Positions 6,820-25,811 of a stretch of DNA of 32,000 nt are shown piece after piece. Origin of the DNA: Bifidobacterium longum subsp. longum JCM 1217 (lineage in GTDB: Bacteria > Actinomycetota > Actinomycetes > Actinomycetales > Bifidobacteriaceae). Numbering within the stretch: position 1 is the first letter of the stretch; the number at the start of each line of letters is the position of its first letter. A model generated the notes under the pieces. It worked only from the letters and a program-made list of their open reading frames with translations, ran no database searches and was not told where the DNA came from. The position numbers were made by a program, and so were the translations under genes. The stretch lies in the NCBI RefSeq assembly GCF_000196555.1, contig NC_015067.1, positions 1,200,001 through 1,232,000 of the forward strand, given 5' to 3'.

Positions 6820-7668
6820 TCAGTCGATGTTGCCGAGCAGTCGGGCGGCGAGCCGGTAGCGGCGGTCCATCCCGCGCGCCGCCGTCCCCGGATCCGCCTC
6901 CTCGCCCATATGCGCGTCCGTGTCCTCCAAAAGGATCCGCTCCCGTTCCGGATCGAGCCCGTAGCGGCCGGCGAGCGCACGGGAATACTGTCCCACGCCG
7001 TCCCCCTCCGCGATGCGTTCGCCCAACGCGTCCCATTCCTTCTCGTCCGCCAGGGCGAGCATGTTGTCGCGCCGGACCTGCTCGTTGAGCTGGCGGGCTT
7101 TGGCGAGCATGTAGGCGGCCGCCTCCCTGGTGCCGGAGATCTCCTTGCCGCGTTTCTCCTCATAGGCGCGGATCTCGTCCGGATGCCTCCGTCGATGCCG
7201 TTCGAACGCGTCGATCGCGTCCACATGCTTCTTCGACGGTTTCGGCTCCTGCCTCAACCGTTCGATCTCCGCGTCCACCCACCGGTCGAGTTCGCCGAAT
7301 TCGGGATCCCGTTCGCGTTGCAGGTCGCGGCGGGCGAGCATGAACGCGGCCGCCTCCCGGTCCGACGAGATCGGGTCGCGGCGTCGGGCGACGAAAGCGC
7401 CCGCCTCGTCCGCATGCCCCGCCCGCCATCGGTCGAACGCGGCGGCCCACCGGCGGGTCGTGCGGTGTCTGACGTCCCGTTCCTCCAGTTCGAGCAGCCG
7501 ACCGTAATGCCCCTCCATGAGGGAGACGAACCGGGCGTGCCCATCGTCCGTCACGGGCGTGGGCGCGGCGACGTCATCCGGGGCCGCGCCCGTGTTTTTC
7601 GCCTCGTATCGGCCGCCTTCGGGCGTGCCCTTCGGCTTGTGGCTCCTGTTGTTCCTGTCCACGGTCAA
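6820..7668 (-). CDS. Leader-family protein A: conserved N-terminal module plus a unique helical body with internal repeats
   Basis: TTG start preceded by AGGAAAGGGGAA. N-terminus is (M)TVDRNNRSHKPKGTPEGGRYE...PDDVAAP. The body has repeated REAAAFMLARRDL / REAAAYMLAKARQL segments. Confidence 0.7.
   Translation of the reverse strand: MTVDRNNRSHKPKGTPEGGRYEAKNTGAAPDDVAAPTPVTDDGHARFVSLMEGHYGRLLELEERDVRHRTTRRWAAAFDRWRAGHADEAGAFVARRRDPISSDREAAAFMLARRDLQRERDPEFGELDRWVDAEIERLRQEPKPSKKHVDAIDAFERHRRRHPDEIRAYEEKRGKEISGTREAAAYMLAKARQLNEQVRRDNMLALADEKEWDALGERIAEGDGVGQYSRALAGRYGLDPERERILLEDTDAHMGEEADPGTAARGMDRRYRLAARLLGNID
7603..7667. repeat. Left copy of a 65-bp perfect inverted repeat (partner at 9174..9238)
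   Basis: The reverse complement of 7603-7667 is identical to 9174-9238 (tgaccgtggacaggaacaacaggagccacaagccgaagggcacgcccgaaggcggccgatacgag). It covers the first ~22 codons of leader genes A and B. Confidence 0.9.
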
Positions 7669-7686: not shown

Positions 7687-8622
7687 TTACTGGTTCTTCC
7701 CGGCCACACAGCCGGCGAGGTAGGTGACGGTCTGCTGTTTCTCCCTCGGAGTCATCGTCAGACCGTATTTCGTTTTGATGCTGACGCGTTTCGCCATGTA
7801 GTCGCACCGGTACGCCTTGTTGTCCGGCATCCAGATGTCGGGCGCGCCCGTATGCTGCGTCAGGTATCCGGATCGTCCGTTCACGTCGATGCCGCTCCCC
7901 TTCGCCATGTTCGCCGGCCCGTCCGAGGCGAGGAGCACGTCCGGATCGTTCGCGTATTCGACGCGTTTCGCCTGATCCCAGTCGCGGGCGCCGGACGCCC
8001 AAGCGTCGTACAGGGACACCACATGGTCGATCTGCACGTCGGCGCTCGTCTTCACGCCCCGTCTGAACCCGATGGTCCCGCCCGTGTACGGGTCGCGCAG
8101 CGTGCCCGACACGACCCGGCATGAGGAGTCCTTCCTCACGCCGGTCATGTCACGGGCGAGGATCGTGTCCCTCGTGGTCGCCTTCCCGCAGCCGGACGAA
8201 GCCCAGCCGCCGAACCGCGTCTCACGGTCGTAGCCGCCCGGCCTGGCGTCCGCCGTGCCTATCCGGCCGGCCGCGTCCAACTGGGCCCGCCATGCGGCCG
8301 CATCCCCCGTCGGGGCCGTGTCCGGGGTTCTCCCCGTGCCCTTCGCCCCCGCGTCCGTCTCCCCGCCCGTATGGACGCCGAACAGGGAGAGCAGGCCCGA
8401 CAGGCTTTTGGCATCCGGGTTGCGTCCCGCATCCCCCTTCTTCGATTCGGCCAATGCGGCCGTGGACGCGTCCGGGTTCCCGACGCCCAGCGTCTCGGAC
8501 ACGGTCCGCCAGCCTCCCGAGGAGACGAGCACGACGACAAGCACGCCCACCATGACCAGGGTCGCGATCATGGACAGCAGCTGCCGGAACGGGCCTCCCC
8601 CATCGCCACGTCGCATGGTCAC
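7687..8622 (-). CDS. Membrane-anchored/secreted DUF1524 (GmrSD C-terminal-like, His-Me finger) nuclease
   Basis: N-terminal TM (LLSMIATLVMVGVLVVVLV). Motifs typical of the actinobacterial DUF1524 family: DPYTGGTIGF, VQIDHVVSLYDAWASGA, ANDPDVLLASDGPANMAKG, WMPDNKAYRCDY, IKTKYGL. Confidence 0.75.
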   Translation of the reverse strand: MTMRRGDGGGPFRQLLSMIATLVMVGVLVVVLVSSGGWRTVSETLGVGNPDASTAALAESKKGDAGRNPDAKSLSGLLSLFGVHTGGETDAGAKGTGRTPDTAPTGDAAAWRAQLDAAGRIGTADARPGGYDRETRFGGWASSGCGKATTRDTILARDMTGVRKDSSCRVVSGTLRDPYTGGTIGFRRGVKTSADVQIDHVVSLYDAWASGARDWDQAKRVEYANDPDVLLASDGPANMAKGSGIDVNGRSGYLTQHTGAPDIWMPDNKAYRCDYMAKRVSIKTKYGLTMTPREKQQTVTYLAGCVAGKNQ

Positions 8623-9172: not shown

Positions 9173-9643
9173 ATGACCGTGGACAGGAACAACAGGAGCC
9201 ACAAGCCGAAGGGCACGCCCGAAGGCGGCCGATACGAGACGAAAGGCGGCGCCACGGGCCCGGATGACGTGAGGCCGCCCACCACGGCCGAAAACGCGTC
9301 CGACATCCTCGACCGGGCACGGGAACGCGGCCTCGACTGGGATCTGCTCGCCGGACGAAGCGAGAACGGGCGCAGCATCAACCTGGACGCGCGGGGTCAC
9401 GGCGACCGGCGCGTCCACGCGGAACCCGACGGGCACGGCGGCTGGGACCTCGTCTACCGGGAATGGAGGAAACCCACATTACGCGAATACAACGGGCCCG
9501 GCATCCACCCGTTCGGCGTATTCGGCTGGATGTCCGACCGGATCAACGGGAACGCGGAGACATGGATCCCCATCCGTCGCGGGCACGCCGCCAATGACGA
9601 CCAGCTGCTCGACGCCGCCGCCGACTGGTGCGGGACCGACTGA
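9173..9643 (+). CDS. Leader-family protein B: conserved N-terminal module plus a unique 110-aa body
   Basis: GGAGGAAA upstream of the ATG. MTVDRNNRSHKPKGTPEGGRYE...PDDVRPP. The first 22 codons are identical at DNA level to gene A. Confidence 0.7.
   Translation: MTVDRNNRSHKPKGTPEGGRYETKGGATGPDDVRPPTTAENASDILDRARERGLDWDLLAGRSENGRSINLDARGHGDRRVHAEPDGHGGWDLVYREWRKPTLREYNGPGIHPFGVFGWMSDRINGNAETWIPIRRGHAANDDQLLDAAADWCGTD
9174..9238. repeat. Right copy of the 65-bp perfect inverted repeat (partner at 7603..7667)
   Basis: See the partner entry. Identity was verified base by base. Confidence 0.9.
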
Positions 9644-9681: not shown

Positions 9682-10320
9682 ATGAGCAAAGACACGCACG
9701 GCCGGACGCACCGGCCCGCCGGACTGCCGAAAGGCGTGGCCGGCACCTACGACAGGAATCCCGGCACGAACGGCGACGACATCGCCCCGCCCATGCCCGT
9801 CCACGACGATCCGGACATACTGCGCCGCGAACTGGCATCCATCCCCCAGCGGGACGGTCCGGAATACGACGGGCTGCGCACCAGGCTCGCCCGCGCCGAA
9901 CTGAGGCAAATGGAATCGAAAGAGAAGCATGCCACCGCCGCCGACATGTTCCGCTCACTCAGCGAAACAGGAGGCGGGACATGGAGTCCGCGAAACGACG
10001 CCACTCCCGTTGTCGGGTTCTGCCATTCACCATACCCCGAACGGAGCAGGGTCGTGGCAATGCCCTCCACCACCGATGATTTCGCACGACTGTCCATGGA
10101 ATATCTCATGGACAATCGCGATCTGCTGTCGAAAGACGGCAACTATCTGGGATTATGGCGCAACCCGGCCGACGACAGATTATATGTCGACGTCTCCGTC
10201 TGCGACATGGACGCGCATGACGTCCGGGACGCATGTGCCAAACATGATCAGATAGCCTTCTGGGACATCCAATTGGGTGAAGAGGTCATCGTGAATCCAG
10301 ACGCGCGATCAGGACAATAA
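9682..10320 (+). CDS. Leader-family protein C: divergent N-terminal module plus a unique body
   Basis: MSKDTHGRTHRPAGLPKGVAGTYD...GDDIAPP. No SD. CGCATAGCC box with its T 12 nt upstream of the ATG. Confidence 0.7.
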   Translation: MSKDTHGRTHRPAGLPKGVAGTYDRNPGTNGDDIAPPMPVHDDPDILRRELASIPQRDGPEYDGLRTRLARAELRQMESKEKHATAADMFRSLSETGGGTWSPRNDATPVVGFCHSPYPERSRVVAMPSTTDDFARLSMEYLMDNRDLLSKDGNYLGLWRNPADDRLYVDVSVCDMDAHDVRDACAKHDQIAFWDIQLGEEVIVNPDARSGQ

Positions 10321-11826: not shown

Positions 11827-12771
11827 ATGAGCACAGACAGGAACAACCGGAGCCACAGGCCGAAAGGCCTGCCCCCACGCGTGGCCGGAACATTCGAACC
11901 GGAAGCATGCGGCGGCCACGAGACCGGCATACGACCGCCCGAACCACCCGACCGCATCGAACTCATGGAACTCGAACGCCTCGCCCGCACCATGCCCGCA
12001 CCACGGCCCGGCGACATCGCATGGCGTTTCGGCACGCACACCATCCCCCAGCAGGCCATCGACATGCGCTACGGGCGCGACGACATACGCCTCCAACGGC
12101 TCGTCATCCTCACCCACGCGGACGAGGACACGCGCCGCATGCTCGCCGCACGCATGCACGACCACGATTGGATTCGCAGCCACGCCACACCCCTGTTCAA
12201 AGACCGCGCATGCATCATCATCCCCGAACCGGACCCCTGGGATGAACCCGGACACGAACCCGGCCGGCCGGACACACGCCCCGTCTGGCCGCACCCCATC
12301 GACACGCGCATGATCGCCGAAGACTGCGCCGCCCACCTCGACATCCGACGCTCATACACGCCCACGCGCGTCAGCCGCACGGGGAACGAAACCCACGTCG
12401 AATGCGTGGACGACACGACCCACACGTCCCGCTCCTACCGGACCGGAACGAACATCGCGCATCTCCCCGACGGAGCCTGCATCGAACATGCGGCCGACGG
12501 ACGATGGCATGTCATCCACGACGATCCGCCGCTCCCCCCACGCCCCGCCGACAGGCCGCACGCACGCGAAGACACGCGCCCGCACGACCCCCGACCCGAC
12601 ACGGAACCGGAACCGGAACCAAACCCGGATCCGCCCGGGCGATCCGACGAAGCGGACAGGCCGCGACGCCCGGCCTCCGACCCGCGCATGCGCCAAGCCT
12701 GGATCCGGTTCCTCACCGGACTGTTCCAGGGCGTGTCCAGCATCATCCGCGAATCCAGGCGCGCCCACTGA
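11827..12771 (+). CDS. Leader-family protein D: N-terminal module plus a unique body with a Pro/Asp/Glu-rich tail
   Basis: MSTDRNNRSHRPKGLPPRVAGTFE. No SD. CGCATAGG box with its T 12 nt upstream. Confidence 0.7.
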   Translation: MSTDRNNRSHRPKGLPPRVAGTFEPEACGGHETGIRPPEPPDRIELMELERLARTMPAPRPGDIAWRFGTHTIPQQAIDMRYGRDDIRLQRLVILTHADEDTRRMLAARMHDHDWIRSHATPLFKDRACIIIPEPDPWDEPGHEPGRPDTRPVWPHPIDTRMIAEDCAAHLDIRRSYTPTRVSRTGNETHVECVDDTTHTSRSYRTGTNIAHLPDGACIEHAADGRWHVIHDDPPLPPRPADRPHAREDTRPHDPRPDTEPEPEPNPDPPGRSDEADRPRRPASDPRMRQAWIRFLTGLFQGVSSIIRESRRAH

Positions 12772-13836: not shown

Positions 13837-14799
13837 TCATGCGTCCCGCGTCCGTCTGACGAGCAGCCGCTTGTACAGTCGGCGTCCGTTGACCGTCGGA
13901 TCGTCGAGCTTGCCGAGCAGCATGAACCCGTTGCCTGGCGCCCAATGTTCGAGGAAGTTCAACGGGACGCCCATCGGCCCGTCATGATCGTCGGGCATCA
14001 TGCGCATGGAGTCCACGTTGATCGCGTCGTAGGCATCATATTCCGGATATTCGTCCTCATGTCCCCGGTACGTGTGTCCCGTGGGAGGCTGGGTCTTGTC
14101 GGCGCGTGCGGCGGCGAGGCTGGTGAGCCATCGGATGCTGTTGACGCCGACCGTGCCGTCGGGCCGGATCATGCTTCCCGTCTTCGGCCGGTCGTCGGGC
14201 AGTCGGAAGAACATGCTGCCCGAGTGGATGCTCAGGCCGACGAGGCAGCGTCCCCCCTTGACCATGGGGAATACGTCGTTGGCGGTGGCGAGGTTCAGGT
14301 TGGCGACGATCAGGAAATCGGTGTCCGGATGCCGGCGGAGCATGCGCATGAACCGGATGGCCTTGCTGAACGGCGGGTTGGTGACGACGATCGCGCCGGG
14401 CCGGTCGAGCAGGCGTTCGCATTCGGGCGAGTCGAACGAGCCGTCGCCGTCCAATGGGCGGGCGGCCAGGTCCGCGATCGAATATCTTCCCTCGCGGCCG
14501 TCGTTGTCCACATGCCATTGCATGGCGGGCGTCCCGTCGTCGAACAGGGTGTCATGGTCGGGTTGGAAGCTCGTGCAGGTGAGGGACGCGATCCCGTATT
14601 CGCTCATGTGGTCGAGCGTCCATCGGACGAACATGCTCATGCCGGGCCGGTCATTGCAGTCGCAGATCACATGCCGGCCGGCCAGGTCATGGCGGTAATG
14701 GGACAGTTCCCTGTCGATCGCGTCGTACGTGGTGTAGAATTCGTCGGCCTTCGCCTTGCGCGCGCCGGTCAGGTACCGGTGATGCTTGTGTGTTCCCAT
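13837..14799 (-). CDS. EcoRI-methylase-like (PF13651-type) N6-adenine DNA methyltransferase, copy 1
   Basis: N-terminal KADEFYT, CDCND, catalytic VVTNPPFS (NPPF motif IV), C-terminal VNGRRLYKRLLVRR. CGCATAC box with its T 11 nt upstream of the ATG. Confidence 0.8.
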   Translation of the reverse strand: MGTHKHHRYLTGARKAKADEFYTTYDAIDRELSHYRHDLAGRHVICDCNDRPGMSMFVRWTLDHMSEYGIASLTCTSFQPDHDTLFDDGTPAMQWHVDNDGREGRYSIADLAARPLDGDGSFDSPECERLLDRPGAIVVTNPPFSKAIRFMRMLRRHPDTDFLIVANLNLATANDVFPMVKGGRCLVGLSIHSGSMFFRLPDDRPKTGSMIRPDGTVGVNSIRWLTSLAAARADKTQPPTGHTYRGHEDEYPEYDAYDAINVDSMRMMPDDHDGPMGVPLNFLEHWAPGNGFMLLGKLDDPTVNGRRLYKRLLVRRTRDA

Positions 14800-15029
14800 G
14801 CCCCGTCGTATGCGTCAGGGGCACGGTTTTCCGGTCGGCTGTCAGACGGCGGGACCGTTGCAGTCTCACCCCCGGATGCCGGTCGGCGGCATGTCATGCG
14901 GGGACGAATACGGTTTCGACGTGAACCAGCCGTGCACGCCATGACCCGTCCTGCGCTCCGATACGGACGGGGCCATTCCAGGGGTCCGCAAAGGCGCGGG
15001 CTCCGGGGCGGCCCCTTTTCCTTTCCGTC

Positions 15030-16136
15030 CTACCTCTGCGCGCCCTTGCGCAGGTTGCAGTCACGGCACAGCATCTGGCAGTTGTCCGGCACGGTGTGCC
15101 CGCCACGGCTCCACGGGACGATGTGGTCCGCATGCATGTCCGCCAGGCCGAACTCGCCGCCGCACACGGCGCACCGGTGCCCTTGGGCTTCATAGGCGGC
15201 GCGCTGGGTGCGTTTGTCGAACGCCCGGATGCTGAGTCTCCGCTCGTCGCCGTCGAGCAGATACCGGTAGACGCCGCTCTTGCGGGTCACGTCCTCGTCG
15301 GCCATCAGCTCTTGGACGCGGGCCTCAAGCGCGTTCGGGTCCAGGTCGGTACGGTCCCGGTTCGCATCGTACATGGGACCCCATGGCAGGCCCTTCATCT
15401 CCCGCCGGTAGACGGGGAACACGGCCTGCGCCCAGTCGAGCACGCTGCGGAAGTAGCTCCACAGCGCCTGCGCGGTCGGGTCGTGCTGGTGTGTGCCCAT
15501 GTAGTCCTCGACGCTCGCGCCGTGCCGTGCGGCCGCCCAGCCGAGCACGGTGGCCAGATAGTCCTGCCGGATGGCCGAGCCCTTCAGCCAGTCGCCGCCC
15601 ACCTGGACCGCGGGGCCGCCCGGCTTGCTGAAGCGGGCGCGGGCGTCCGCGACCCATGGGCCCGCGTATACGGCGTTCAGCAGCTCCTGGTCGTTCAGCT
15701 GGACGCCGGCGATGTTGACGATGCGGAACCAGTCGAGCTTCTCCGACTCGGTGCCGGAGCATACGTACACGGTCAGCGGGTAGCCGAGGATACGCTCCTT
15801 GACGTCGCGGGGCAGGTTGAAGAAGAACCGCCCGTCGAGGCTGTACTGTCCGGCCACGTATGAGCAGACGCTGATGGTGCGCTGCTGGCCGTCCATGACC
15901 TCGTAGCGTGGCCGCGCGTCGGGTCCCCGGTCCACCCAGTACATGACGTTCAGCGGGAGCCCCTTGAGTATGGTGCGCACCACCTCGTCGCGCCGGTCGT
16001 CCCGGTAGACGAACTCGCGCTGGTAGGGCGGGCGCACGTCCAGGTCGCCGCCGTAGGCGGTCACGCCCCCGACCGCATTGTCCGTGTAGCCTTGGCTCAG
16101 GTCGCGCACCGCGACGGTGATGGGTTCGACGTTCAA
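15030..16136 (-). CDS. DUF262 (ParB-like, GmrSD N-terminal type) plus C-terminal HNH endonuclease
   Basis: MDGQQRT motif of DUF262. HNH region CAVCGGEF...HADHIVPWSRGGH...NCQMLCRDCNLRKG. TTG start in a TTGA overlap with the upstream MTase stop, with AAGGAGG 6 nt upstream. Confidence 0.85.
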   Translation of the reverse strand: MNVEPITVAVRDLSQGYTDNAVGGVTAYGGDLDVRPPYQREFVYRDDRRDEVVRTILKGLPLNVMYWVDRGPDARPRYEVMDGQQRTISVCSYVAGQYSLDGRFFFNLPRDVKERILGYPLTVYVCSGTESEKLDWFRIVNIAGVQLNDQELLNAVYAGPWVADARARFSKPGGPAVQVGGDWLKGSAIRQDYLATVLGWAAARHGASVEDYMGTHQHDPTAQALWSYFRSVLDWAQAVFPVYRREMKGLPWGPMYDANRDRTDLDPNALEARVQELMADEDVTRKSGVYRYLLDGDERRLSIRAFDKRTQRAAYEAQGHRCAVCGGEFGLADMHADHIVPWSRGGHTVPDNCQMLCRDCNLRKGAQR

Positions 16137-17344
16137 TTGGATGCCTCCTTGCGGCGGATGAGGATTCGCCTGTATGTCTCCTGGCCGTGTATGCGCCCGT
16201 TCATCAGACCGGGCGCACGGCGGGTCATGTTCGGATAGTCGCGGTCTATCGGCTCGGTCTGCGGCGTATGGTGATGCGGGCGTACTTCGATTTGCCGTTG
16301 ACCATCGTGTCCTTCGGATTGTTGAACAGCCCGGCTATCGCCGTCGCCGGACGAGTATGCGAAAGTACGGTTGTACTCTCTCTCTCTTTCTCGGGTGAAG
16401 ACCAGGTCGCGTCCGTCATCGCCCTTGCGGAACGCGACGATGTCGAATTGGTCCGGGTTGTACTTGTCCATGAACGTGATGGGCACGCCCATCACGCCGT
16501 AGTAATCCTCGGGGATGTCGGCCACCTTCGACACCTCGATGGCGTCGTGGTTGTCGTACTTCGGGTAGTCGGTCTCATGGCCCTTGTACCGGCGATAGAG
16601 CAGCAGGTCCTCGTGGCGCTTTTTGATGTCCAGGTTGGTGTACCAACGGCACAGGCCGTTGACTTGTTTGGTGGTCCCCTCGCCGGGGATGGTGAAGTCG
16701 GACGGCGAGGTGAAGCCCAACCAGACCTTGTCATCGCGTAGGAGCGGAAAGATCTCCTTGTAGGTAATGGCGTTCTTGTTGCCCAGTACCACGAATTTCT
16801 TGCCATGTTCCACGAGCGTCGCCACATACTCGCGGAACAGGCTGAACGGCGGATTGGTCACGACGATGTCGGCCTCGTCGAGCAGTTCGAGGCATTCACG
16901 GCTGCGGAAGTCCCCGGCTCCGTATTCGCCGTCCCCGTGGAGCTCGGCCACCTCGTTGCCCGGGGCGTTCAACAGCACTTTGACGTCCTCCATGTCGAAG
17001 CCGCCGTCACCGGTCGTATCCTCCACGTGGGTGACGATGGCCTTGTAGGCGTGACGCGACGGCGCGTCCGGTTCGTCGCCGAACAGCGACGGCTGGTACT
17101 CGGCCCCGGCGATAGGCGAGCCGCAGTAGCTCGTCGCCATCAGCTTCTTCAGTCCCAGATGGTTGAAGTTCAGGGCGAAGTACCTGAAGAAGTTCGACTC
17201 GTAGGGGTCGTCGCAGTTGCAAAGCACGGTCCTGCCTTTGAAATGCTCCGAGTAATGCCTTAGCTCGTTCTCGATGTCCGGCATTCGTGTGTAGAACTCG
17301 TCGTTCTTGGCCTTCTTGGCGGCTGATAGTTGGTTGTTGCCCAT
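16133..17344 (-). CDS. EcoRI-methylase-like N6-adenine DNA methyltransferase, copy 2 (3' region shows a reading-frame anomaly)
   Basis: Start chosen at MGNNQLSAAKKAKNDEFYT (ATG 17344), with the T of an ACGCATAGCG box 11 nt upstream. CNCDDP, VVTNPPFS, tail GLMNGRIHGQETYRRILIRRK. The 74 codons upstream in the track ORF look non-coding. Confidence 0.75.
   Translation of the reverse strand: MGNNQLSAAKKAKNDEFYTRMPDIENELRHYSEHFKGRTVLCNCDDPYESNFFRYFALNFNHLGLKKLMATSYCGSPIAGAEYQPSLFGDEPDAPSRHAYKAIVTHVEDTTGDGGFDMEDVKVLLNAPGNEVAELHGDGEYGAGDFRSRECLELLDEADIVVTNPPFSLFREYVATLVEHGKKFVVLGNKNAITYKEIFPLLRDDKVWLGFTSPSDFTIPGEGTTKQVNGLCRWYTNLDIKKRHEDLLLYRRYKGHETDYPKYDNHDAIEVSKVADIPEDYYGVMGVPITFMDKYNPDQFDIVAFRKGDDGRDLVFTREREREYNRTFAYSSGDGDSRAVQQSEGHDGQRQIEVRPHHHTPQTEPIDRDYPNMTRRAPGLMNGRIHGQETYRRILIRRKEASN
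16376..16387. repeat. (CT)6 / (AG)6 dinucleotide repeat inside MTase copy 2
   Basis: ctctctctctct on the + strand, which encodes RERERE on the minus strand. Confidence 0.9.
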
Positions 17345-17476
17345 ACCGGGCGCTATGCGTCGCGGCGAAAGGAAAGGTGCCGCCGAAGCCTTTGGCGGCA
17401 CGGCCCGTCCTGGGCGGATACGCCGACGGGCCGCCGCCAATAAGCCGGAAGTCCCGCACCGTTTGCCGAACATGAC

Positions 17477-17517
17477 AGGAGGCCGCCTCATGGGATAATC
17501 CCGTGGGGCGGCCTCCT
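17477..17517 (-). terminator. Long hairpin after the 17523 stop
   Basis: aggaggccgcc (17477-17487) pairs perfectly with ggcggcctcct (17507-17517), with partial pairing inside the loop. No clear U-tract. Confidence 0.4.
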
Positions 17518-17522
17518 TACGA

Positions 17523-18092
17523 CTATTCGACGCGTTCCACCTTATCGTCGAACAGATGGAACCCATGGCGTGCGGCGGCGACGCCCTGCGGTGTCCTGTC
17601 GGCCAAACGGCGTAGGTCGCTGTCGTCGTACGCTTTGATGGTCAGCGTGCAATGGTAGCCTCCCTCGCCCTTGGTCAGGTCCAGGTCGGGGTCGGCGAGA
17701 AGCCCCTCGCGGTCGGGCTTGCTTCCTTGGGGATAGCACAGTTTGAAACGGACGGTCCAATCGGCGGGCTCGCCGATCTCATACTCGTCCGACTTTGCGC
17801 CGGGAATCCTCGCGGTGATGTCCGCAGCCTGACGGTTCGCCCGTTCGATGCGGTCCGCCTTGCCCTGATGACGGTCGAGCCAAAGATTCACCGCATGGGA
17901 CACGTCCGCCCCTTCGGATCGGGTGCAGTCGCAGTCGACGTGGACGCGAAGCGCATCCTCATCCCCGTCATATCCGGCCGTGACGATCACAGCCTTGTGG
18001 CAGATGGGACATTCGCGCCCTGCATATAGGTCGCGGAACCGCTCGAACGATTCGACGCAACGATTCCACCTCCAGGCGCGCCCGTACAACAA
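17523..18092 (-). CDS. Hypothetical Cys-containing protein (CPICHK ... CDCDCT, possible zinc ribbon)
   Basis: 189-aa ORF with good third-position GC. Only TTG starts are available, so the start is uncertain. Confidence 0.5.
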   Translation of the reverse strand: MLYGRAWRWNRCVESFERFRDLYAGRECPICHKAVIVTAGYDGDEDALRVHVDCDCTRSEGADVSHAVNLWLDRHQGKADRIERANRQAADITARIPGAKSDEYEIGEPADWTVRFKLCYPQGSKPDREGLLADPDLDLTKGEGGYHCTLTIKAYDDSDLRRLADRTPQGVAAARHGFHLFDDKVERVE

Positions 18093-18190: not shown

Positions 18191-19513
18191 ATGACGGCAG
18201 ACAGGAACAACAGGAGCCACAGGCCGAAGGGCCTGCCCCAGGGGGTGGCGGGCACGTTCGACACGACGGCCGTGACGGCGGGGATCGACGACGTCGTCCC
18301 GCCGTCGGCCGGCGGACGTCGGCTGGACGATGCGATGCTCACAGCCGAAACATACATCATCATGGATCCGGATGTAGCCGACTGCGCGGGATACGCCGCC
18401 AGACGATTGGGTGAGCTCATCGCCCGTCCGGCGAAACCGGGCGAAACCGATGACATGCCGTTGATCATTGAAAACCTGCGATACGATCCGCAGGCCCCGG
18501 GCGGCTCCCATGCCGACTATATCGCCGACCATATAGAGGCCGCCTATGACGGCATACCGGTCAAAGCGCCTGACCGTACGCAATTGGAACAGGAAACCCG
18601 ACAGCATATCCTCGAGACCGCGTTGGATCCGAACCGGGAGCTCCGCAAGCTCGGATTGGAGCCCGTACGGCCAGACGAACACACGAACGCATACGCGGGA
18701 CCGCAGCCGGAGGATTGGGTAAGCGACTACGACGAGGAGACCGCCGAACGCCGCCACGAAGCCGCATGGAAAGGCACCCGGACCAAACAGGCCCGATATG
18801 CCGCGGCGACGGAGAAACACCTGTCACCGTTGAACGATGACATGCGCGACCTGTACAAGACGAACGTCGACCGTGGACTGATCAACGGCAGCGCGTTCGA
18901 TGACAGGATGGCGTTCGCCGACACGCTGCACGAATTGCAGGAGGATGGCTGGAACCCGCAGGCGGGGCGCGAATACCGGAAATCCAAGGAGTTCAGGAAA
19001 CTGGAGAAACAACTGCTGGACGGGCGGAAACCGACCCGACGATACCGGCAGCTGCGCGACGCGTTGTGCGACGACGAACACGGGTACCGGGCGTTCATGG
19101 CCGCGGATCCTGACGTGTTCGACCCGGACGAGAGAATCGTGAAGCCGTTCGCCGGACTCGGCCCCGACGTCGGCCAGGCCGCCATGCTGCGCCTGGCCGC
19201 CAAACACCGGGGCGTCACCGGGGCGCTCGCCCTGGCACGCTGGGATCCGGGCATCGAATACGTGACGGCGGACGCGAAGACCCACACGTTCCGCATGGAG
19301 CATGACCGGCCGGGAATCGGGTATTACAGCGACGGCTCCACCTATCCGATCGGGCACACGGTCATCACGGCGAACGGGATCAAACCCGCGAGCGTGATGA
19401 GCTGGATACACAACGAGAAGCCGGGCACGCCGGAATGGGAGGCGCGGACCCGCACCCGGTTCGAGGAGTCGAACGGCGGCGAATGGAAGCCCGCCGAAAC
19501 CGACGTAATCTAA
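18191..19513 (+). CDS. Leader-family protein E: N-terminal module plus a unique 400-aa body
   Basis: GGAGA 6 nt upstream of the ATG. MTADRNNRSHRPKGLPQGVAGTFD...IDDVVPP. Confidence 0.75.
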   Translation: MTADRNNRSHRPKGLPQGVAGTFDTTAVTAGIDDVVPPSAGGRRLDDAMLTAETYIIMDPDVADCAGYAARRLGELIARPAKPGETDDMPLIIENLRYDPQAPGGSHADYIADHIEAAYDGIPVKAPDRTQLEQETRQHILETALDPNRELRKLGLEPVRPDEHTNAYAGPQPEDWVSDYDEETAERRHEAAWKGTRTKQARYAAATEKHLSPLNDDMRDLYKTNVDRGLINGSAFDDRMAFADTLHELQEDGWNPQAGREYRKSKEFRKLEKQLLDGRKPTRRYRQLRDALCDDEHGYRAFMAADPDVFDPDERIVKPFAGLGPDVGQAAMLRLAAKHRGVTGALALARWDPGIEYVTADAKTHTFRMEHDRPGIGYYSDGSTYPIGHTVITANGIKPASVMSWIHNEKPGTPEWEARTRTRFEESNGGEWKPAETDVI

Positions 19514-19561: not shown

Positions 19562-20098
19562 ATGGAAGAAGAATCCGTTCGGCTCGCTATCCGGCTCAAA
19601 GATGATTCGGTGTGGAAGATTTCCAATCTTTCCGGCACCGTCATACCCTACAAGGCAGCCGCCGGCATCGTCCACCACGGAAAGGGTCTTGCAGGCCGTC
19701 CCGTCGAGGAGACGGTGTTGTTGTACCGTCTGTCGAACGCATTGGAGACGACCATCGCCAATGCAGATCATCCACTTGATGAAGACCTGTTCGATTGCTT
19801 CAAGGAGCAGTTGGGGGCTTCGAAGGACATTCCCCTGCCGGATCACACCAATCCGACGGAGGAAAACGCCACGGACATGTTTATGGAGCTTTGGAATCAG
19901 GATAGGATCCTCGCCGCCGTGTGCGCGAACCATCTTCTCGTCGAAGGCGGCATCGGCCTGTTCGGAACCTACCCCGACCAGCTTCCGGCATTGGAATCCG
20001 CCATAGGGGATTCCAAGGAAGCCGCCATCTCCTATATTCACGACAATGCGGTAGAGCTTCTTCCCGGAGGCCTCACCCGGAACAGGATGCCACAATGA
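19562..20098 (+). CDS. Acidic hypothetical protein (178 aa), translationally coupled to the Fic/Doc-like gene
   Basis: AAGGAGG 5 nt upstream of ATG 19562. An alternative upstream ATG at 19523 lies inside a conserved box. About 28 Asp/Glu against about 14 Lys/Arg by hand count. Visibly lower GC than its neighbours. ATGA overlap with the next gene. Confidence 0.6.
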   Translation: MEEESVRLAIRLKDDSVWKISNLSGTVIPYKAAAGIVHHGKGLAGRPVEETVLLYRLSNALETTIANADHPLDEDLFDCFKEQLGASKDIPLPDHTNPTEENATDMFMELWNQDRILAAVCANHLLVEGGIGLFGTYPDQLPALESAIGDSKEAAISYIHDNAVELLPGGLTRNRMPQ

Positions 20099-20919
20099 CC
20101 ATGGATGCGAACAACCGGAGTCATCGTCCCGCCGGACTGCCACAAGGCGTGGCCGGCACGTTCGATACGACCGTATCCGGAGTGGATGATGCCGATGTCG
20201 CCCCTCCCATGGGGGCGGGAACCGTTTCCAATGCGGAGGCATGCGTCAATCTGGCGAAACGCCGCACCATCGACCTGCTGTGGAAGACCGCGAGCATCGA
20301 GGTCAGGGGTCTCACGTTCCCCGATACGCGCGACGTGTTCAAGGGCATCACGCCCGGGGATGCGAGGGCCAGGGATGTGATGGTGCTGAACAATCTGAAG
20401 CACGCCTGGCAGTTCCTTTTCGACAACACGGATTGGCCGGTCGACTGGCAGTATCTTTCCGAATACAACCGGCTTGTAGGTGACGGGCTGGAGCCCTCCC
20501 CCGGCAGGCTGAGGAACGACATGGTCACCATCGGAGGCACCAGATATGTTCCCCCTGTTCCCTCGTATGATGGGGTCAGGGATCAAATCGGAAAGGATCT
20601 CGGGCTTGACGATCCGGAGGATAGGGCGTTGAACCTGTTCGCATCCATCAGCCGGGGCCAATGGTTCAGCAACGGCAACAAGCGGACTTCGGCGATGGCC
20701 GCCAACCATTGCCTCATCCATGACGGGGTCGGCATATTCGCATTGCCTCCGGAACGGATGGATGACGAGTTCAGGGACAGGCTCATCGGCTTTTACGAAA
20801 GCGATGATCGCGGACCGTTCATCGACTGGCTGAAATACCATGCGGTCGGACGTCTGGTGGACAATGGGCTGACTTCGGCGCAGAAAAACGGGGATGATCC
20901 GATCCACGACGATATGTGA
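20095..20919 (+). CDS. Leader-family protein F: N-terminal module plus a Fic/Doc (Fido) domain with a non-canonical active-site motif
   Basis: MTMDANNRSHRPAGLPQGVAGTFD...DDADVAPP. Fic-fold landmarks are PGRLRNDMVTIGGTRYVPPVP and ISRGQWFSNGNKRTSAMAANHCL, against the canonical HPFx[DE]GN[GK]R and the Doc motif HxFx[DN][AG]NKR. Confidence 0.75.
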   Translation: MTMDANNRSHRPAGLPQGVAGTFDTTVSGVDDADVAPPMGAGTVSNAEACVNLAKRRTIDLLWKTASIEVRGLTFPDTRDVFKGITPGDARARDVMVLNNLKHAWQFLFDNTDWPVDWQYLSEYNRLVGDGLEPSPGRLRNDMVTIGGTRYVPPVPSYDGVRDQIGKDLGLDDPEDRALNLFASISRGQWFSNGNKRTSAMAANHCLIHDGVGIFALPPERMDDEFRDRLIGFYESDDRGPFIDWLKYHAVGRLVDNGLTSAQKNGDDPIHDDM

Positions 20920-22619: not shown

Positions 22620-25600
22620 ATGATCAGATTCGAATACGAATACCCCGTCCGCGTGAAGACCCAGGCAGGCGACAGCGTCGAATTCGACCCGGCGAACAAC
22701 GGCGGCCACCGGGCGCTCCTCGACCGGCAGATAGCGAAATGGCAGGCCGGGTATCCGGAGGCCAAGGCCGCCCGCCTCGAATTCATCGACCGGGACCGGC
22801 ATGTCGCCGTCCTCGTCGACCGGCAGTCGTCCAGCGTCGACATGCGCGACGATTCCAGCCTCGAAGTCAATCTGAGCGCCGAACATTCGAAACCCAGCAA
22901 GGGCGCCGAGGTGCAGGCCGTATACGAGACGAAATACCCCGGATACCGGCTCACCGTGTTCCACCCGTACGAAGGCAAGGCGCTCCTCGAACGGCTCACG
23001 GACGCGCAGGCCACGGCCCGCGCCCAGATCGCCACCGAACTCGGCCTGCACGACTGGGATCTCAGGGTCACGCCTTTGGAGGACGGCGGATGGAAGGTCC
23101 TCCTCGACGAGGGCATCACCTACCAGCCGTCCAAAATGGACACGCGCATGGAGAAGGCCTGCCTGACCGTCGGCCGGCTCGGCTGGTGGTTTGACGCCGA
23201 CCCCGACACCGGCGTCATCGAGATCCATCCCGGCGAGCCGCCCACCTTCCCCAAACTCGTCCCCTTCCCGTTCGACCGGATCGGCGACCCGACCGTCCGC
23301 GACAAGACCCCGTTCGGCATCCGACTGGCCCGCCCCGGCGAGACCGGCGAACCCGCGTTCGTCGACTGGACCCAATCCCTCGGCCTCCTTATAGCCGGAT
23401 TGTCAGGTGGCGGCAAGGCTCTTCCCTTGGATGCGCGTATCCCCGTGCCCGTCTCCGAACGCTTCCCCGCCGGCTGGGCTAGGAACCGGGACCTCAAAGA
23501 AGGCGATCCGGTGTACGGGCGCGACGGGCGGATCATCCCCATCAAGGACTTCAGCGACGTGGAGGAGCTGCCCATCTACCGTCTGACCCTGTCCGATGGC
23601 CAGATTCTGGAATGCGCGGACAACCATCTGTGGACCGTATCGGATTCCGTCATGCGCCAGGCCATGTCCGACGAACGAGGCCGGGAGCGACGCGAACAGA
23701 CCATCCGGCTCGTGAATCGTTTGCGTGACGAAGCGGCCACGGTCGGGGATGGCGTGAGAGCCAACCGACGCCATATCGCCATCGACCACGGGCTGCCCCC
23801 TAATGTGACCCAGAACTGCGCGGAACGGCATGATCTGGTCGGGTCGGATGGCCTGTGCGACGAGGCGGAACTGCTGCACGCCATCGCCGACGAACGCGAA
23901 TCCTACGTCATGCCCGGCGGCGTATGGGCGAACACCGTCGAAACGATCCTCACTGCACGCGAGATATCGGAGAATCCGAAACCTCACGGCAAATGCTGGG
24001 GTATCCGCCTTGCCAATCCCATCGAGAATCCGGACGCCAACCTGCCGCTCGGCCCGTATTTCCTCGGCACCTGGCTTGGCGACGGCATCTCCCGTGCCGG
24101 GGCCATCTGTCTCAACGATGACGACGAACCGCATATGCAACCCGACATTCTCTCCAGTCTGGGTGGTTCGATCCGTCGCGGAAAAGTTGAACACGGGGCG
24201 CATACCTGGTTCTATGACATGGATGACGGGCGCATCCTCGTAACCGAACTCAAAAGGCTCGGCCTGTACATGGACAAGCACATCCCCGCCGTCTATCTGC
24301 GCGCCTCCAAGAGCCAGCGCCTCGCCCTGCTCCAGGGGCTCATGGATACGGACGGTTCGGTTTCCAGTCGCGGATCATGCGAACTGTGCTTCACCAATCA
24401 GCGGCTTGCCGAAACCGCATTGGAGCTCATCCGCTCCCTGGGCATCGCCGCCGGCATGCACTCCGGACGGGCGGGCTATACAAAAGACGGCGAACGTGTG
24501 GAGGCCGGCATCCGGTATCGGATCCGTTTCACCACCTCCAAACCCGTGTTCCGCTTGCCCCGCAAACTGGCACGGCTCAAGACCGACACCCGTTCCACGC
24601 AGGATTGGCTGTACATCACGTCCTGCGAGCCGACGGGGCGCACGGAGCCGGTCCGCTGCCTGAACGTGGCGACCGACGACCACCTGTTCCTCATGGGCGG
24701 GTTCGTGCCCACGCATAACAGCGTCACCATCAATGACGTGACCACGTTGGGCATCGGCACGGGCGCGGAACTGTACGTGATCGACCATTCCACGAAGGCC
24801 ACCGACTACTACTGGTGCCGGCCGTGGATCGCGGACCGGGGCTGGGGCGCGGATTCGCTGCTCCAGACCGCCGGACTGTTGAAATGGCTGCTCGACGACA
24901 TCGAGGACGGCGGCGAGCGCGCCAGGGCGTGGAAGAGCCACGGCTGGCAGAACTGGTACGACGACCTGTCAGACGAGGACAAGAGACGATACCCGTACCG
25001 GCTGATCGTCGTGGACGAGCTGTCCCAGCTGACGGTCGGCGCGAAGGATGCGACCAGCCTGCCGAAGAACCCGCTGCCGCCGGTCATGGAGAAGATGTTC
25101 GAACAGCAGGTGAAGGCGCTCATCCTGTCCACCCTGATCCGCATCCTTCAGATCGGCCGAGCCTATGGCTACCGGGTGGTGGTCGCCACCCAGATCGCGT
25201 CGTCGACGACGGGCATGCCGCCCGCGTTGCGCGGCAACCTGGGCAACAAGGTCATCATGGGCGCGAAGGTCAACGACGCGCAGAAGAACCTGATCTTCAA
25301 CATCGCGAAGGACGTGCCCGACATTCCGGCGAACGTGATCGACGAGGGCGTGTCCAAGGGCGCGGGCCTGAGCGAGATGGAGGGGCAGCCGCCCTACGAT
25401 TTCAAGAGCTCGTTCCCCATGCTTGGGCATCATGCGGGCGTGGCGGCGCTCGGCAAGGCTTTGGCCGAACGGATCGGCCTGCCCGACGGGATCGGCATGG
25501 ACGAATACCTCGACTCCCTGGACAAGGACACGCCTTCGAACCCGGAGTTCGAACAACGGGTCATGGAACGCATCCGGTTCCCCGAGGCGGAATCATATCT

Positions 25601-25811
25601 GCGTTTCCCGTTCCTGCAGGCCATCAAGGACAAGTGGGATGAAAGCCTCGACGAGTACGGGGGCGGCCCGGCCGATGCCGGATCCGGGGGGAACGGGGAT
25701 GACGGCACCGCACCCGCCGGCCGACCGGTCGCACCGGCCGCCTCCGGCCCGGAACCGTCCGGCCCGCTCATGGACGCGGCCGAACTGGCGCGCATCATGC
25801 GCCGGGGCTGA
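22620..25811 (+). CDS. FtsK/SpoIIIE-family conjugative coupling/translocase ATPase (TcpA/TraB-like), interrupted by an intein
   Basis: Walker A is split as GLSGGGK | S. Walker B is YRLIVVDELSQL. VVVATQIASS...LRGNLGNKVIMG is typical of FtsK-like motors. No SD, and the T of a GGCATAGCC box is 12 nt upstream of the ATG. Confidence 0.85.
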   Translation: MIRFEYEYPVRVKTQAGDSVEFDPANNGGHRALLDRQIAKWQAGYPEAKAARLEFIDRDRHVAVLVDRQSSSVDMRDDSSLEVNLSAEHSKPSKGAEVQAVYETKYPGYRLTVFHPYEGKALLERLTDAQATARAQIATELGLHDWDLRVTPLEDGGWKVLLDEGITYQPSKMDTRMEKACLTVGRLGWWFDADPDTGVIEIHPGEPPTFPKLVPFPFDRIGDPTVRDKTPFGIRLARPGETGEPAFVDWTQSLGLLIAGLSGGGKALPLDARIPVPVSERFPAGWARNRDLKEGDPVYGRDGRIIPIKDFSDVEELPIYRLTLSDGQILECADNHLWTVSDSVMRQAMSDERGRERREQTIRLVNRLRDEAATVGDGVRANRRHIAIDHGLPPNVTQNCAERHDLVGSDGLCDEAELLHAIADERESYVMPGGVWANTVETILTAREISENPKPHGKCWGIRLANPIENPDANLPLGPYFLGTWLGDGISRAGAICLNDDDEPHMQPDILSSLGGSIRRGKVEHGAHTWFYDMDDGRILVTELKRLGLYMDKHIPAVYLRASKSQRLALLQGLMDTDGSVSSRGSCELCFTNQRLAETALELIRSLGIAAGMHSGRAGYTKDGERVEAGIRYRIRFTTSKPVFRLPRKLARLKTDTRSTQDWLYITSCEPTGRTEPVRCLNVATDDHLFLMGGFVPTHNSVTINDVTTLGIGTGAELYVIDHSTKATDYYWCRPWIADRGWGADSLLQTAGLLKWLLDDIEDGGERARAWKSHGWQNWYDDLSDEDKRRYPYRLIVVDELSQLTVGAKDATSLPKNPLPPVMEKMFEQQVKALILSTLIRILQIGRAYGYRVVVATQIASSTTGMPPALRGNLGNKVIMGAKVNDAQKNLIFNIAKDVPDIPANVIDEGVSKGAGLSEMEGQPPYDFKSSFPMLGHHAGVAALGKALAERIGLPDGIGMDEYLDSLDKDTPSNPEFEQRVMERIRFPEAESYLRFPFLQAIKDKWDESLDEYGGGPADAGSGGNGDDGTAPAGRPVAPAASGPEPSGPLMDAAELARIMRRG
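23418..24719 (+). mobile_element. 434-aa intein with a LAGLIDADG homing endonuclease domain, inserted in the P-loop
   Basis: Starts ALPLDARIPV right after GGGK and ends FVPTHN before SVT, so removal restores GLSGGGKSVT. Block B is GQILECADNHLW and block F is VRCLNVATDDH. LAGLIDADG motifs are YFLGTWLGDGIS and LALLQGLMDTDGSV. Confidence 0.85.

Follow-up and report, generated by a model that had tools for sequence, protein, structure and literature searches.

A probable mobile restriction-modification cassette beside a solitary EcoRI-family methylase in an integrative element of Bifidobacterium longum

The complete, 2.39-Mb chromosome of Bifidobacterium longum subsp. longum JCM 1217 carries a gene for a DUF262-HNH nuclease that is flanked by two genes for EcoRI-like adenine methyltransferases. 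This arrangement raises the question of what such a nuclease does next to two methylases. DUF262 nucleases of the GmrSD/BrxU type are known as modification-dependent (type IV) enzymes, and an earlier note on this DNA regarded their tight coupling to a methylase as paradoxical, unless the nuclease is the methylation-sensitive partner in an unconventional restriction-modification (R-M) system, both methylases protect against it, or it targets a different modification. We analyzed the locus within a window of 32,000 nucleotides (nt), i.e., the whole stretch of DNA under study (contig NC_015067.1, positions 1,200,001 to 1,232,000); all coordinates below are those of the window. In the explanation that we consider probable, a mobile R-M cassette, made up of the nuclease and one methylase (M2), landed beside a resident orphan methylase (M1); M2 would protect, the nuclease would restrict unmethylated DNA, and M1 would be independent of both.

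The gene layout proposed in the earlier note was recovered, namely three open reading frames (ORFs) on the minus strand, in the order M2, nuclease, gap, M1. Their principal features are:

16133-17344, minus strand: M2, an EcoRI-family N6-adenine methyltransferase of 403 amino acids (aa) in the present frame (PF13651, E about 1e-127, 426.6 bits)
16844-16855, minus strand: NPPF catalytic motif of M2
16144-16150, minus strand: AAGGAGG, the Shine-Dalgarno sequence of the nuclease gene, within the frame-1 tail of M2
15030-16136, minus strand: nuclease of 368 aa with a TTG start (PF03235 GmrSD_N, E 1.8e-16; PF01844 HNH, E 2.5e-14)
15879-15893, minus strand: DGQQR motif of the nuclease, residues 82-86
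about 15039-15173, minus strand: HNH domain of the nuclease
13837-14799, minus strand: M1, an EcoRI-family N6-adenine methyltransferase of 320 aa (PF13651, E 1.7e-56, 192.5 bits)

Classification with profile models, a check that had been proposed earlier, assigned two methylases and one nuclease with both Pfam and PADLOC, and the domain E-values of all three proteins lie far beyond chance. M1 and M2 match PF13651 over their full length and above its gathering cut-off of 26.4 bits. Both contain the sequence VVTNPPFS and keep the family-invariant residues; they are 32% identical over 311 aligned residues, i.e., the divergent paralogues they had been taken for. The longest ORF for M2 extends to 17566, and its relatives all begin at the ATG at 17344, the start given in the earlier note. 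That note had also described a TTG start and a TTGA overlap, and indeed the TTG of the nuclease gene (16136-16134) overlaps the TGA stop of M2 (16135-16133) by 4 bp. The Shine-Dalgarno sequence lies within the 3' end of M2, likewise as described, at 16150-16144, and the relatives have ATG or GTG at the position of the TTG. The gap between the nuclease gene and M1 (14800-15029) measures exactly 230 bp, the length previously stated. A scan for promoters and terminators gave signals no better than in shuffled sequence, and a search for near-identical DNA in plasmids gave no match.

A survey of gene neighborhoods, which had also been called for, covered 80 loci from species-representative genomes and two phage records, 82 in total. 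A gene of the PF13651 family is found upstream of the nuclease gene, on the same strand, in 78 of these 82 loci, which come from many phyla and the two phages. The spacing between methylase and nuclease is within 30 nt in 52 of the 78 coupled loci, and the genes overlap in 27. The same pair with a 4-bp overlap is present in Flavobacterium phage laban6-1 (gp07/gp08) and in a gut phage contig. Of the four exceptions, one has its methylases on the downstream side, two are truncated at the end of a contig, and one is a solitary nuclease. This last locus, L029 (1025-2593), is the sole clearly solitary copy; a PIN-domain gene directly precedes it, and there is no EcoRI-family methylase within 7.7 kb. 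We also observed spacings of about 1.1-1.6 kb in loci from metagenome-assembled genomes of Paludibacteraceae and other Bacteroidales (L016, L013, L019, L025, L026, L030). L016 (5021-5950) was the one scanned for what lies in this space, which contains a gene with helix-turn-helix and Fic domains.

The PADLOC model REase_II (PDLC03418) matches the nuclease full length (residues 7-365 of 368, E 1.5e-135), and the model MTase_II (PDLC03297) matches M2 with an E-value of 4e-117 and M1 with 2.1e-55. The locus thus has the methylase-model match and adjacent nuclease-model match by which PADLOC recognizes R-M type II. The nuclease family is very large, with at least 7989 clusters at E ≤ 1e-10, and strongly conserved, with 50-65% identity across phyla. 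For the cassette family as a whole, the searches gave at least 8000 protein clusters; it occurs in gut, rumen and environmental bacteria as well as in phages. Within Bifidobacterium, the nuclease was found in 10 of 149 species genomes, at 35-65% identity, a patchy spread that appears typical of restriction systems. Judged by its distribution, the combination of M2 and nuclease appears to be a widespread, conserved two-gene R-M unit. Because the order methylase-then-nuclease is near-universal and often overlapping, and because the PADLOC matches are full length, we read the nuclease as the restriction partner of a methylase; the comparison supports this role rather than that of a stand-alone type IV enzyme. 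Among the earlier options, an unconventional R-M system is therefore upheld for the M2-nuclease pair, by gene order and PADLOC matches, and not for the trio.

How, then, is the DUF262 domain to be understood? The motifs of the nuclease are intact, including YQR, DGQQR and a zinc-binding HNH core of the form CxxC...DH...N...CxxC. An AlphaFold (AF2) model with a mean predicted local distance difference test (pLDDT) score of 91.9 shows an N-terminal alpha/beta domain, a helical middle and the C-terminal HNH domain. Foldseek comparison of this model gave domain-level matches to the nucleotide-binding domain of ParB, Noc and KorB and to HNH enzymes, and weak matches to BrxU and SspE. For the models of the nuclease and M2, Foldseek detected no full-length structural relative in the PDB; a PDB sequence search returned HNH-domain matches only for the nuclease, and none for M2. 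The NCBIfam scan gave only sub-threshold HNH matches, to IscB and Cas9d. The model suggests that the N-terminal domain of the nuclease has an NTPase fold of the ParB/DUF262 type. DUF262 has been described as an NTPase-fold module found in several kinds of nuclease (PMC4619093, PMC3632139), and a 2025 survey counts fusions of ParB-CTPase and HNH domains as novel and uncharacterized (PMC12704722). Since DUF262 is only a ParB-fold NTPase module that several kinds of nuclease use, the paradox disappears. As a side observation, the nuclease gene of L106 (3985-5090) is split into ORFs of 183 and 190 aa, with one C lost from a run of four; this is either a real inactivation or an assembly error. The methylase of this relative is in the 13-nt (frame-0) state described below.

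These data bear directly on the possibility of a modification-dependent nuclease of type IV, akin to GmrSD or BrxU, flanked by methylases that either are unrelated anti-restriction cargo or mark another base context. The kinship suspected earlier holds in part: an N-terminal DUF262 domain with DGQQR is common to the nuclease, GmrSD, BrxU and SspE, and the weak Foldseek matches to the latter two are in keeping with it. It does not extend to the C-terminus, where the Pfam matches are to HNH families only (PF01844/PF14279), with no match to PF07510 (DUF1524), nor to the length, which is 368 aa as compared with about 560-580 for BrxU and SspE. In addition, the link to a methylase in all but four loci, often with a 4-bp overlap, would make a methyl-dependent enzyme either suicidal or useless, and only L029 is clearly solitary. 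We therefore regard a type IV function as extremely unlikely.

We turn now to M1. The suggestion that the three genes are conserved as a unit was not borne out: orthologues of M1 occur without the cassette, and the closest cassettes occur without M1. The lineage of M1 is narrow, with relatives at 98, 91, 61 and 49% identity, and then below 40%. The locus that encodes the 98% relative (L089) is collinear with the window on both sides, at 96.5-97.7% DNA identity (window positions 24463-18192 and 14828-12929); its slot, however, is 1.7 kb long and holds two other genes, as opposed to 3.4 kb with the cassette in the window. The 91% orthologue lies in a collinear element in G043, a genome with no homologue of the nuclease, and the relatives at 61% and 49% are likewise solitary. 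M1 is thus an orphan methylase, with solitary orthologues at a conserved position in the element (L089, L090-L092, G043). This agrees with the earlier note, in which orphan methylases of the EcoRI type were described as common anti-restriction cargo of conjugative elements. Conversely, the closest relatives of the M2-nuclease pair (M2 93-95% identical; one from B. adolescentis) lie directly after the coupling ATPase and before a gene of 271 aa, with no second methylase; this arrangement is shared by L087, L088 and L105-L107.

The boundary between the two modules can be located within the gap, and the DNA on the other side of the cassette is distinct as well:

14800-14946, minus strand: the upstream region of M1 itself, backbone DNA, matching at 96% identity the sequence that precedes the M1 orthologue in the cassette-free G043
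14938-15029, minus strand: 3' flank travelling with the cassette, present at 96-97% identity directly behind the nuclease gene in L105, L106, L119 and L120
17368-18107, minus strand: copy-specific DNA upstream of the cassette, with no match among the relatives fetched
17523-18092, minus strand: ORF of 189 aa within this copy-specific DNA

Because the two parts of the gap match DNAs of different origin, the junction of cassette and backbone falls at 14938-14946; that is, the 230-bp gap is a mosaic. With M1 orthologues solitary, the closest cassettes lacking M1, and this junction in the gap, we find no support for a functional trio, and the comparisons indicate a juxtaposition of two modules rather than a three-part system. 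Flanking repeats were considered as a sign of a transposon-like cassette and rejected, as only short repeats at chance level were found. On the upstream side, the 189-aa ORF has no match in Pfam, PADLOC or NCBIfam. Directly after its stop codon there is an inverted repeat (17477-17517; 20 nt, 90% complementary, 1-nt loop), and more GC-rich hairpins are found in the leader of roughly 180 nt before M2.

EcoRI-family methylases without the nuclease were found in seven other Bifidobacterium genomes, often as two genes about 5 kb apart. Four nuclease-free genomes (G030, G021, G009, G022) have two such genes 2-6 kb apart, which suggests that paired orphan methylases may be regular cargo of these elements. 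A methylome study of B. breve reported orphan methylases without a detected motif inside mobile regions (PMC5829577).

The explanation we favor can now be set out in full. In module 1 (about 14938-17367), the mobile two-gene R-M cassette, M2 would methylate adenines in the DNA of host and element. The nuclease, presumably co-transcribed and translationally coupled, would use its HNH site to cut incoming DNA that lacks the M2 mark, and would probably be controlled by nucleotide binding in its ParB-like N-terminal domain. Module 2 would consist of M1, the solitary methylase of the element backbone, and the upstream region that belongs to M1. Most likely, M1 either methylates the element in advance and so shields it from restriction in new hosts, or stays silent at rest. 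A segment of 1.6-1.7 kb beside M1 would have been replaced by the cassette plus about 740 bp of unrelated DNA, giving rise to the apparent sandwich.

Three points weigh against this explanation. First, tandem EcoRI-family methylases adjoin the nuclease gene in L003, L004, L017, L083, L085 and G007, as would be expected if two methylases were required. Second, we found no methylome, cleavage or toxicity data in the literature searched for any member of the family, and no paper describing a pair of DUF262+HNH nuclease and PF13651 methylase. Third, near-identical nucleases are paired with methylases whose variable segments, described below, belong to different classes, which would be unexpected for a classical Type II enzyme reading its own site.

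The first of these points would favor a single system of all three genes, in which one strand, or one half, of an asymmetric site is methylated by M1 and the other by M2, and both are needed against the nuclease. Type IIS systems with two methylases provide a precedent. However, a single methylase is the rule (about 95% of the loci in the species set), and the second methylases of L083 and L085, at about 31% identity, are too distant from M1 to be its orthologues. Together with the solitary state of the M1 orthologues, the lack of M1 next to the closest cassettes, and the position of M1 beyond the mapped junction with a conserved upstream region of its own, this makes a three-gene system very unlikely. 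The tandem genes of L083 (2027-2950) and L085 (3197-4126) represent a third lineage, of short EcoRI-family methylases (307-309 aa) located upstream of the cassette methylase.

The third point concerns the following feature:

16646-16720, minus strand: variable segment of M2, aa 209-233, with 22 classes among 82 methylase-nuclease pairs

In a comparison of these 82 non-redundant pairs, segment identity was bimodal, at either 10-30% or 50-100%. Within one class, the segment is conserved at least as well as the methylase core. The nuclease, on the other hand, is uniformly conserved and has no variable region at all. In 26 of 36 pairs with a nuclease identity of 90% or more, the segment class differs; for example, the nucleases of the window and L083 are 97% identical, and their methylase segments are different. 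The segment is therefore a candidate target-recognition module, as far as the alignments can indicate.

A second source of variation is found near the 3' end of the M2 gene:

16376-16392, minus strand: interrupted (GA)n tract, 17 nt in the window, which sets the frame of the M2 tail
16133-16375, minus strand: three alternative M2 tails, one per frame
16335-16337, minus strand: stop codon of the frame-2 tail
16246-16248, minus strand: stop codon of the frame-0 tail
16133-16135, minus strand: stop codon of the frame-1 tail, used here

Between otherwise identical flanks, the tract has four lengths:

13 nt: L106, M2 of 380 aa, frame 0
15 nt: L107 and L084, 351 aa, frame 2
17 nt: the window and L105, 403/420 aa, frame 1
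19 nt: L085, 382 aa, frame 0

All three frames finish with a Y-x-R-I-x-x-R-R tail, the normal C-terminus of the family, so that the three methylase forms may all be active. Only in frame 1, that of the window, does the M2 stop overlap the start of the nuclease gene. Between the window and the L085 lineage, 8 of 13 substitutions in the frame-0 tail are at third codon positions, and the frame-1 tail shows in-frame indels only, with its motif kept; this shows that, in the course of time, the M2 gene has made use of more than one frame. In the frame of the window, residues 308-381 of M2 are predicted to be disordered, and residues 381-398 to fold back as beta strands. We considered whether this M2 is merely a frameshifted, broken gene, and rejected the idea: the identical 403-aa protein is present on 89 contigs, and forms of 404-421 aa are common. 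Because it recurs unchanged, the 403-aa form is a stable, common state.

Both kinds of variation could also be accommodated by methylase-guided restriction with a logic like that of Type III systems. In this case the nuclease would have no specificity of its own and would be recruited or licensed by the methylase, or would read only the methylase's mark; a segment swap would retarget the whole system, and changes in the (GA)n tract would alter the tail and the translational coupling of the two genes, with modification staying on. A constant nuclease facing 22 exchanged segment classes would then be explained, and so would the four tract lengths, the family-type tail in each frame and the substitution patterns of the frame-0 and frame-1 tails; the combination of an NTPase-fold domain and a nuclease domain likewise resembles Res subunits. 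However, both a methylase-nuclease complex and specificity set by the segment are suppositions drawn from sequence, the methylase falls outside the beta class of Mod, and a helicase motor is missing from the nuclease. Furthermore, if the tails were leftovers of recombination, three remnants would fall into different frames by chance about 2/9 of the time, and the nuclease gene has a strong Shine-Dalgarno sequence of its own. On balance, we consider such guidance unlikely.

A more far-reaching form of this idea would be a new class of system. Here an EcoRI-family methylase, with its short segment exchanged by recombination, would aim or license a nucleotide-gated ParB-fold NTPase-HNH nuclease that by itself has no sequence specificity, and slippage in the (GA)n tract would cycle through three functional tails, with modification always on and overlap-dependent translation of the nuclease turned up or down. 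M1 could then be a second guide or a competing protector. We hold this to be quite unlikely, and retain the R-M cassette beside an independent M1 as the probable explanation.

Regarding the wider setting, the genes around the three, namely those for CHAP and NlpC/P60 hydrolases, a DUF1524 protein, a coupling-type ATPase, a helicase and IstB, indicate that the surroundings are an integrative mobile element of Bifidobacterium. The coupling-type ATPase (22620-25811, plus strand) has 1063 aa; its relatives of 626-630 aa match it in two blocks (residues 1-268 and 254-626), and the roughly 420 extra residues between the blocks match LAGLIDADG_3, which indicates a putative intein. The DUF1524 protein (7687-8622, minus strand; 311 aa) has an N-terminal membrane-like segment and a DUF1524 (GmrSD_C) nuclease domain, with no DUF262, and is kept at the same relative place in L087 and L120. 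Finally, an N-terminal module of roughly 35 aa (M-T-x-D-R-N-N-R-S-H-[KR]-P-K-G...) opens several otherwise unrelated genes:

6820-7668, minus strand: gene with the module
9173-9643, plus strand: gene with the module
9682-10320, plus strand: gene with the module
11827-12771, plus strand: gene with the module
18191-19513, plus strand: gene with the module
inside 19921-20919, plus strand: the module within the gene

A degenerate remnant lies just upstream of M1 (about 14832-14846, minus strand). Such a module may serve cargo genes as a common handle for export or recombination.

The new results are the dissection of the three-gene stretch and the mapping of its junction at base level. The apparent paradox is settled in that modification dependence cannot be read from a shared DUF262 domain; gene context decides. 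The locus provides a base-level example of a restriction cassette that appears to have moved between slots of related Bifidobacterium integrative elements and to have come to rest next to a same-family orphan methylase. This is relevant when methylomes are read and when gut bifidobacteria are to be made genetically accessible. With a constant nuclease, a variable methylase and a repeat switch with three tails, the cassette is a good candidate for bench work.

Compared with known systems, the cassette shares with GmrSD, BrxU and SspE an N-terminal DUF262 domain with YQR and DGQQR and a C-terminal His-Me-finger nuclease (PMC4619093). It differs in that this nuclease domain is a classical zinc-binding HNH (PF01844) rather than DUF1524, in that the protein is about 200 residues shorter, and in that it is methylase-linked (78/82 loci) and almost never stands alone. 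With the EcoRI system it has in common the M.EcoRI family PF13651, with its NPPF motif, to which both M1 and M2 belong; the partner nuclease, however, is DUF262+HNH, and not of the PD-(D/E)XK type of R.EcoRI. Type II R-M systems at large are resembled in the full-length matches to the PADLOC models PDLC03297 and PDLC03418, in the adjacent, co-oriented genes with the methylase first, and in the patchy horizontal spread, whereas a ParB-fold NTPase domain in the nuclease is unusual for Type II, and a constant nuclease with a swapped methylase segment is a further difference. Both features raise an indirect doubt as to whether the nuclease, like a Type II enzyme, recognizes a defined sequence itself and cuts there independently of NTP hydrolysis.

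Type III systems, including those with phase-variable mod genes, consist of a beta-class PF01555 Mod and a Res with a superfamily 2 (SF2) helicase. The likenesses are a methylase gene that lies upstream of, and overlaps, the nuclease gene, a variable segment in a conserved methylase, a simple-sequence repeat inside the methylase gene, and a conserved R subunit with NTPase and nuclease domains; this is a functional resemblance only, not membership. M2 belongs to PF13651 and not PF01555, there is no SF2 helicase (no such Pfam matches were found in M2 or the nuclease), and the repeat of the cassette is near the 3' end, where it swaps tails rather than causing early truncation. M1, for its part, resembles the orphan methylases of mobile elements reported in B. 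breve (PMC5829577), in that it stands alone, its place in the integrative element is conserved, and orthologous contexts contain no partner nuclease. It differs from them in that, in this window, an unrelated nuclease belonging to the same system family lies 230 bp away.

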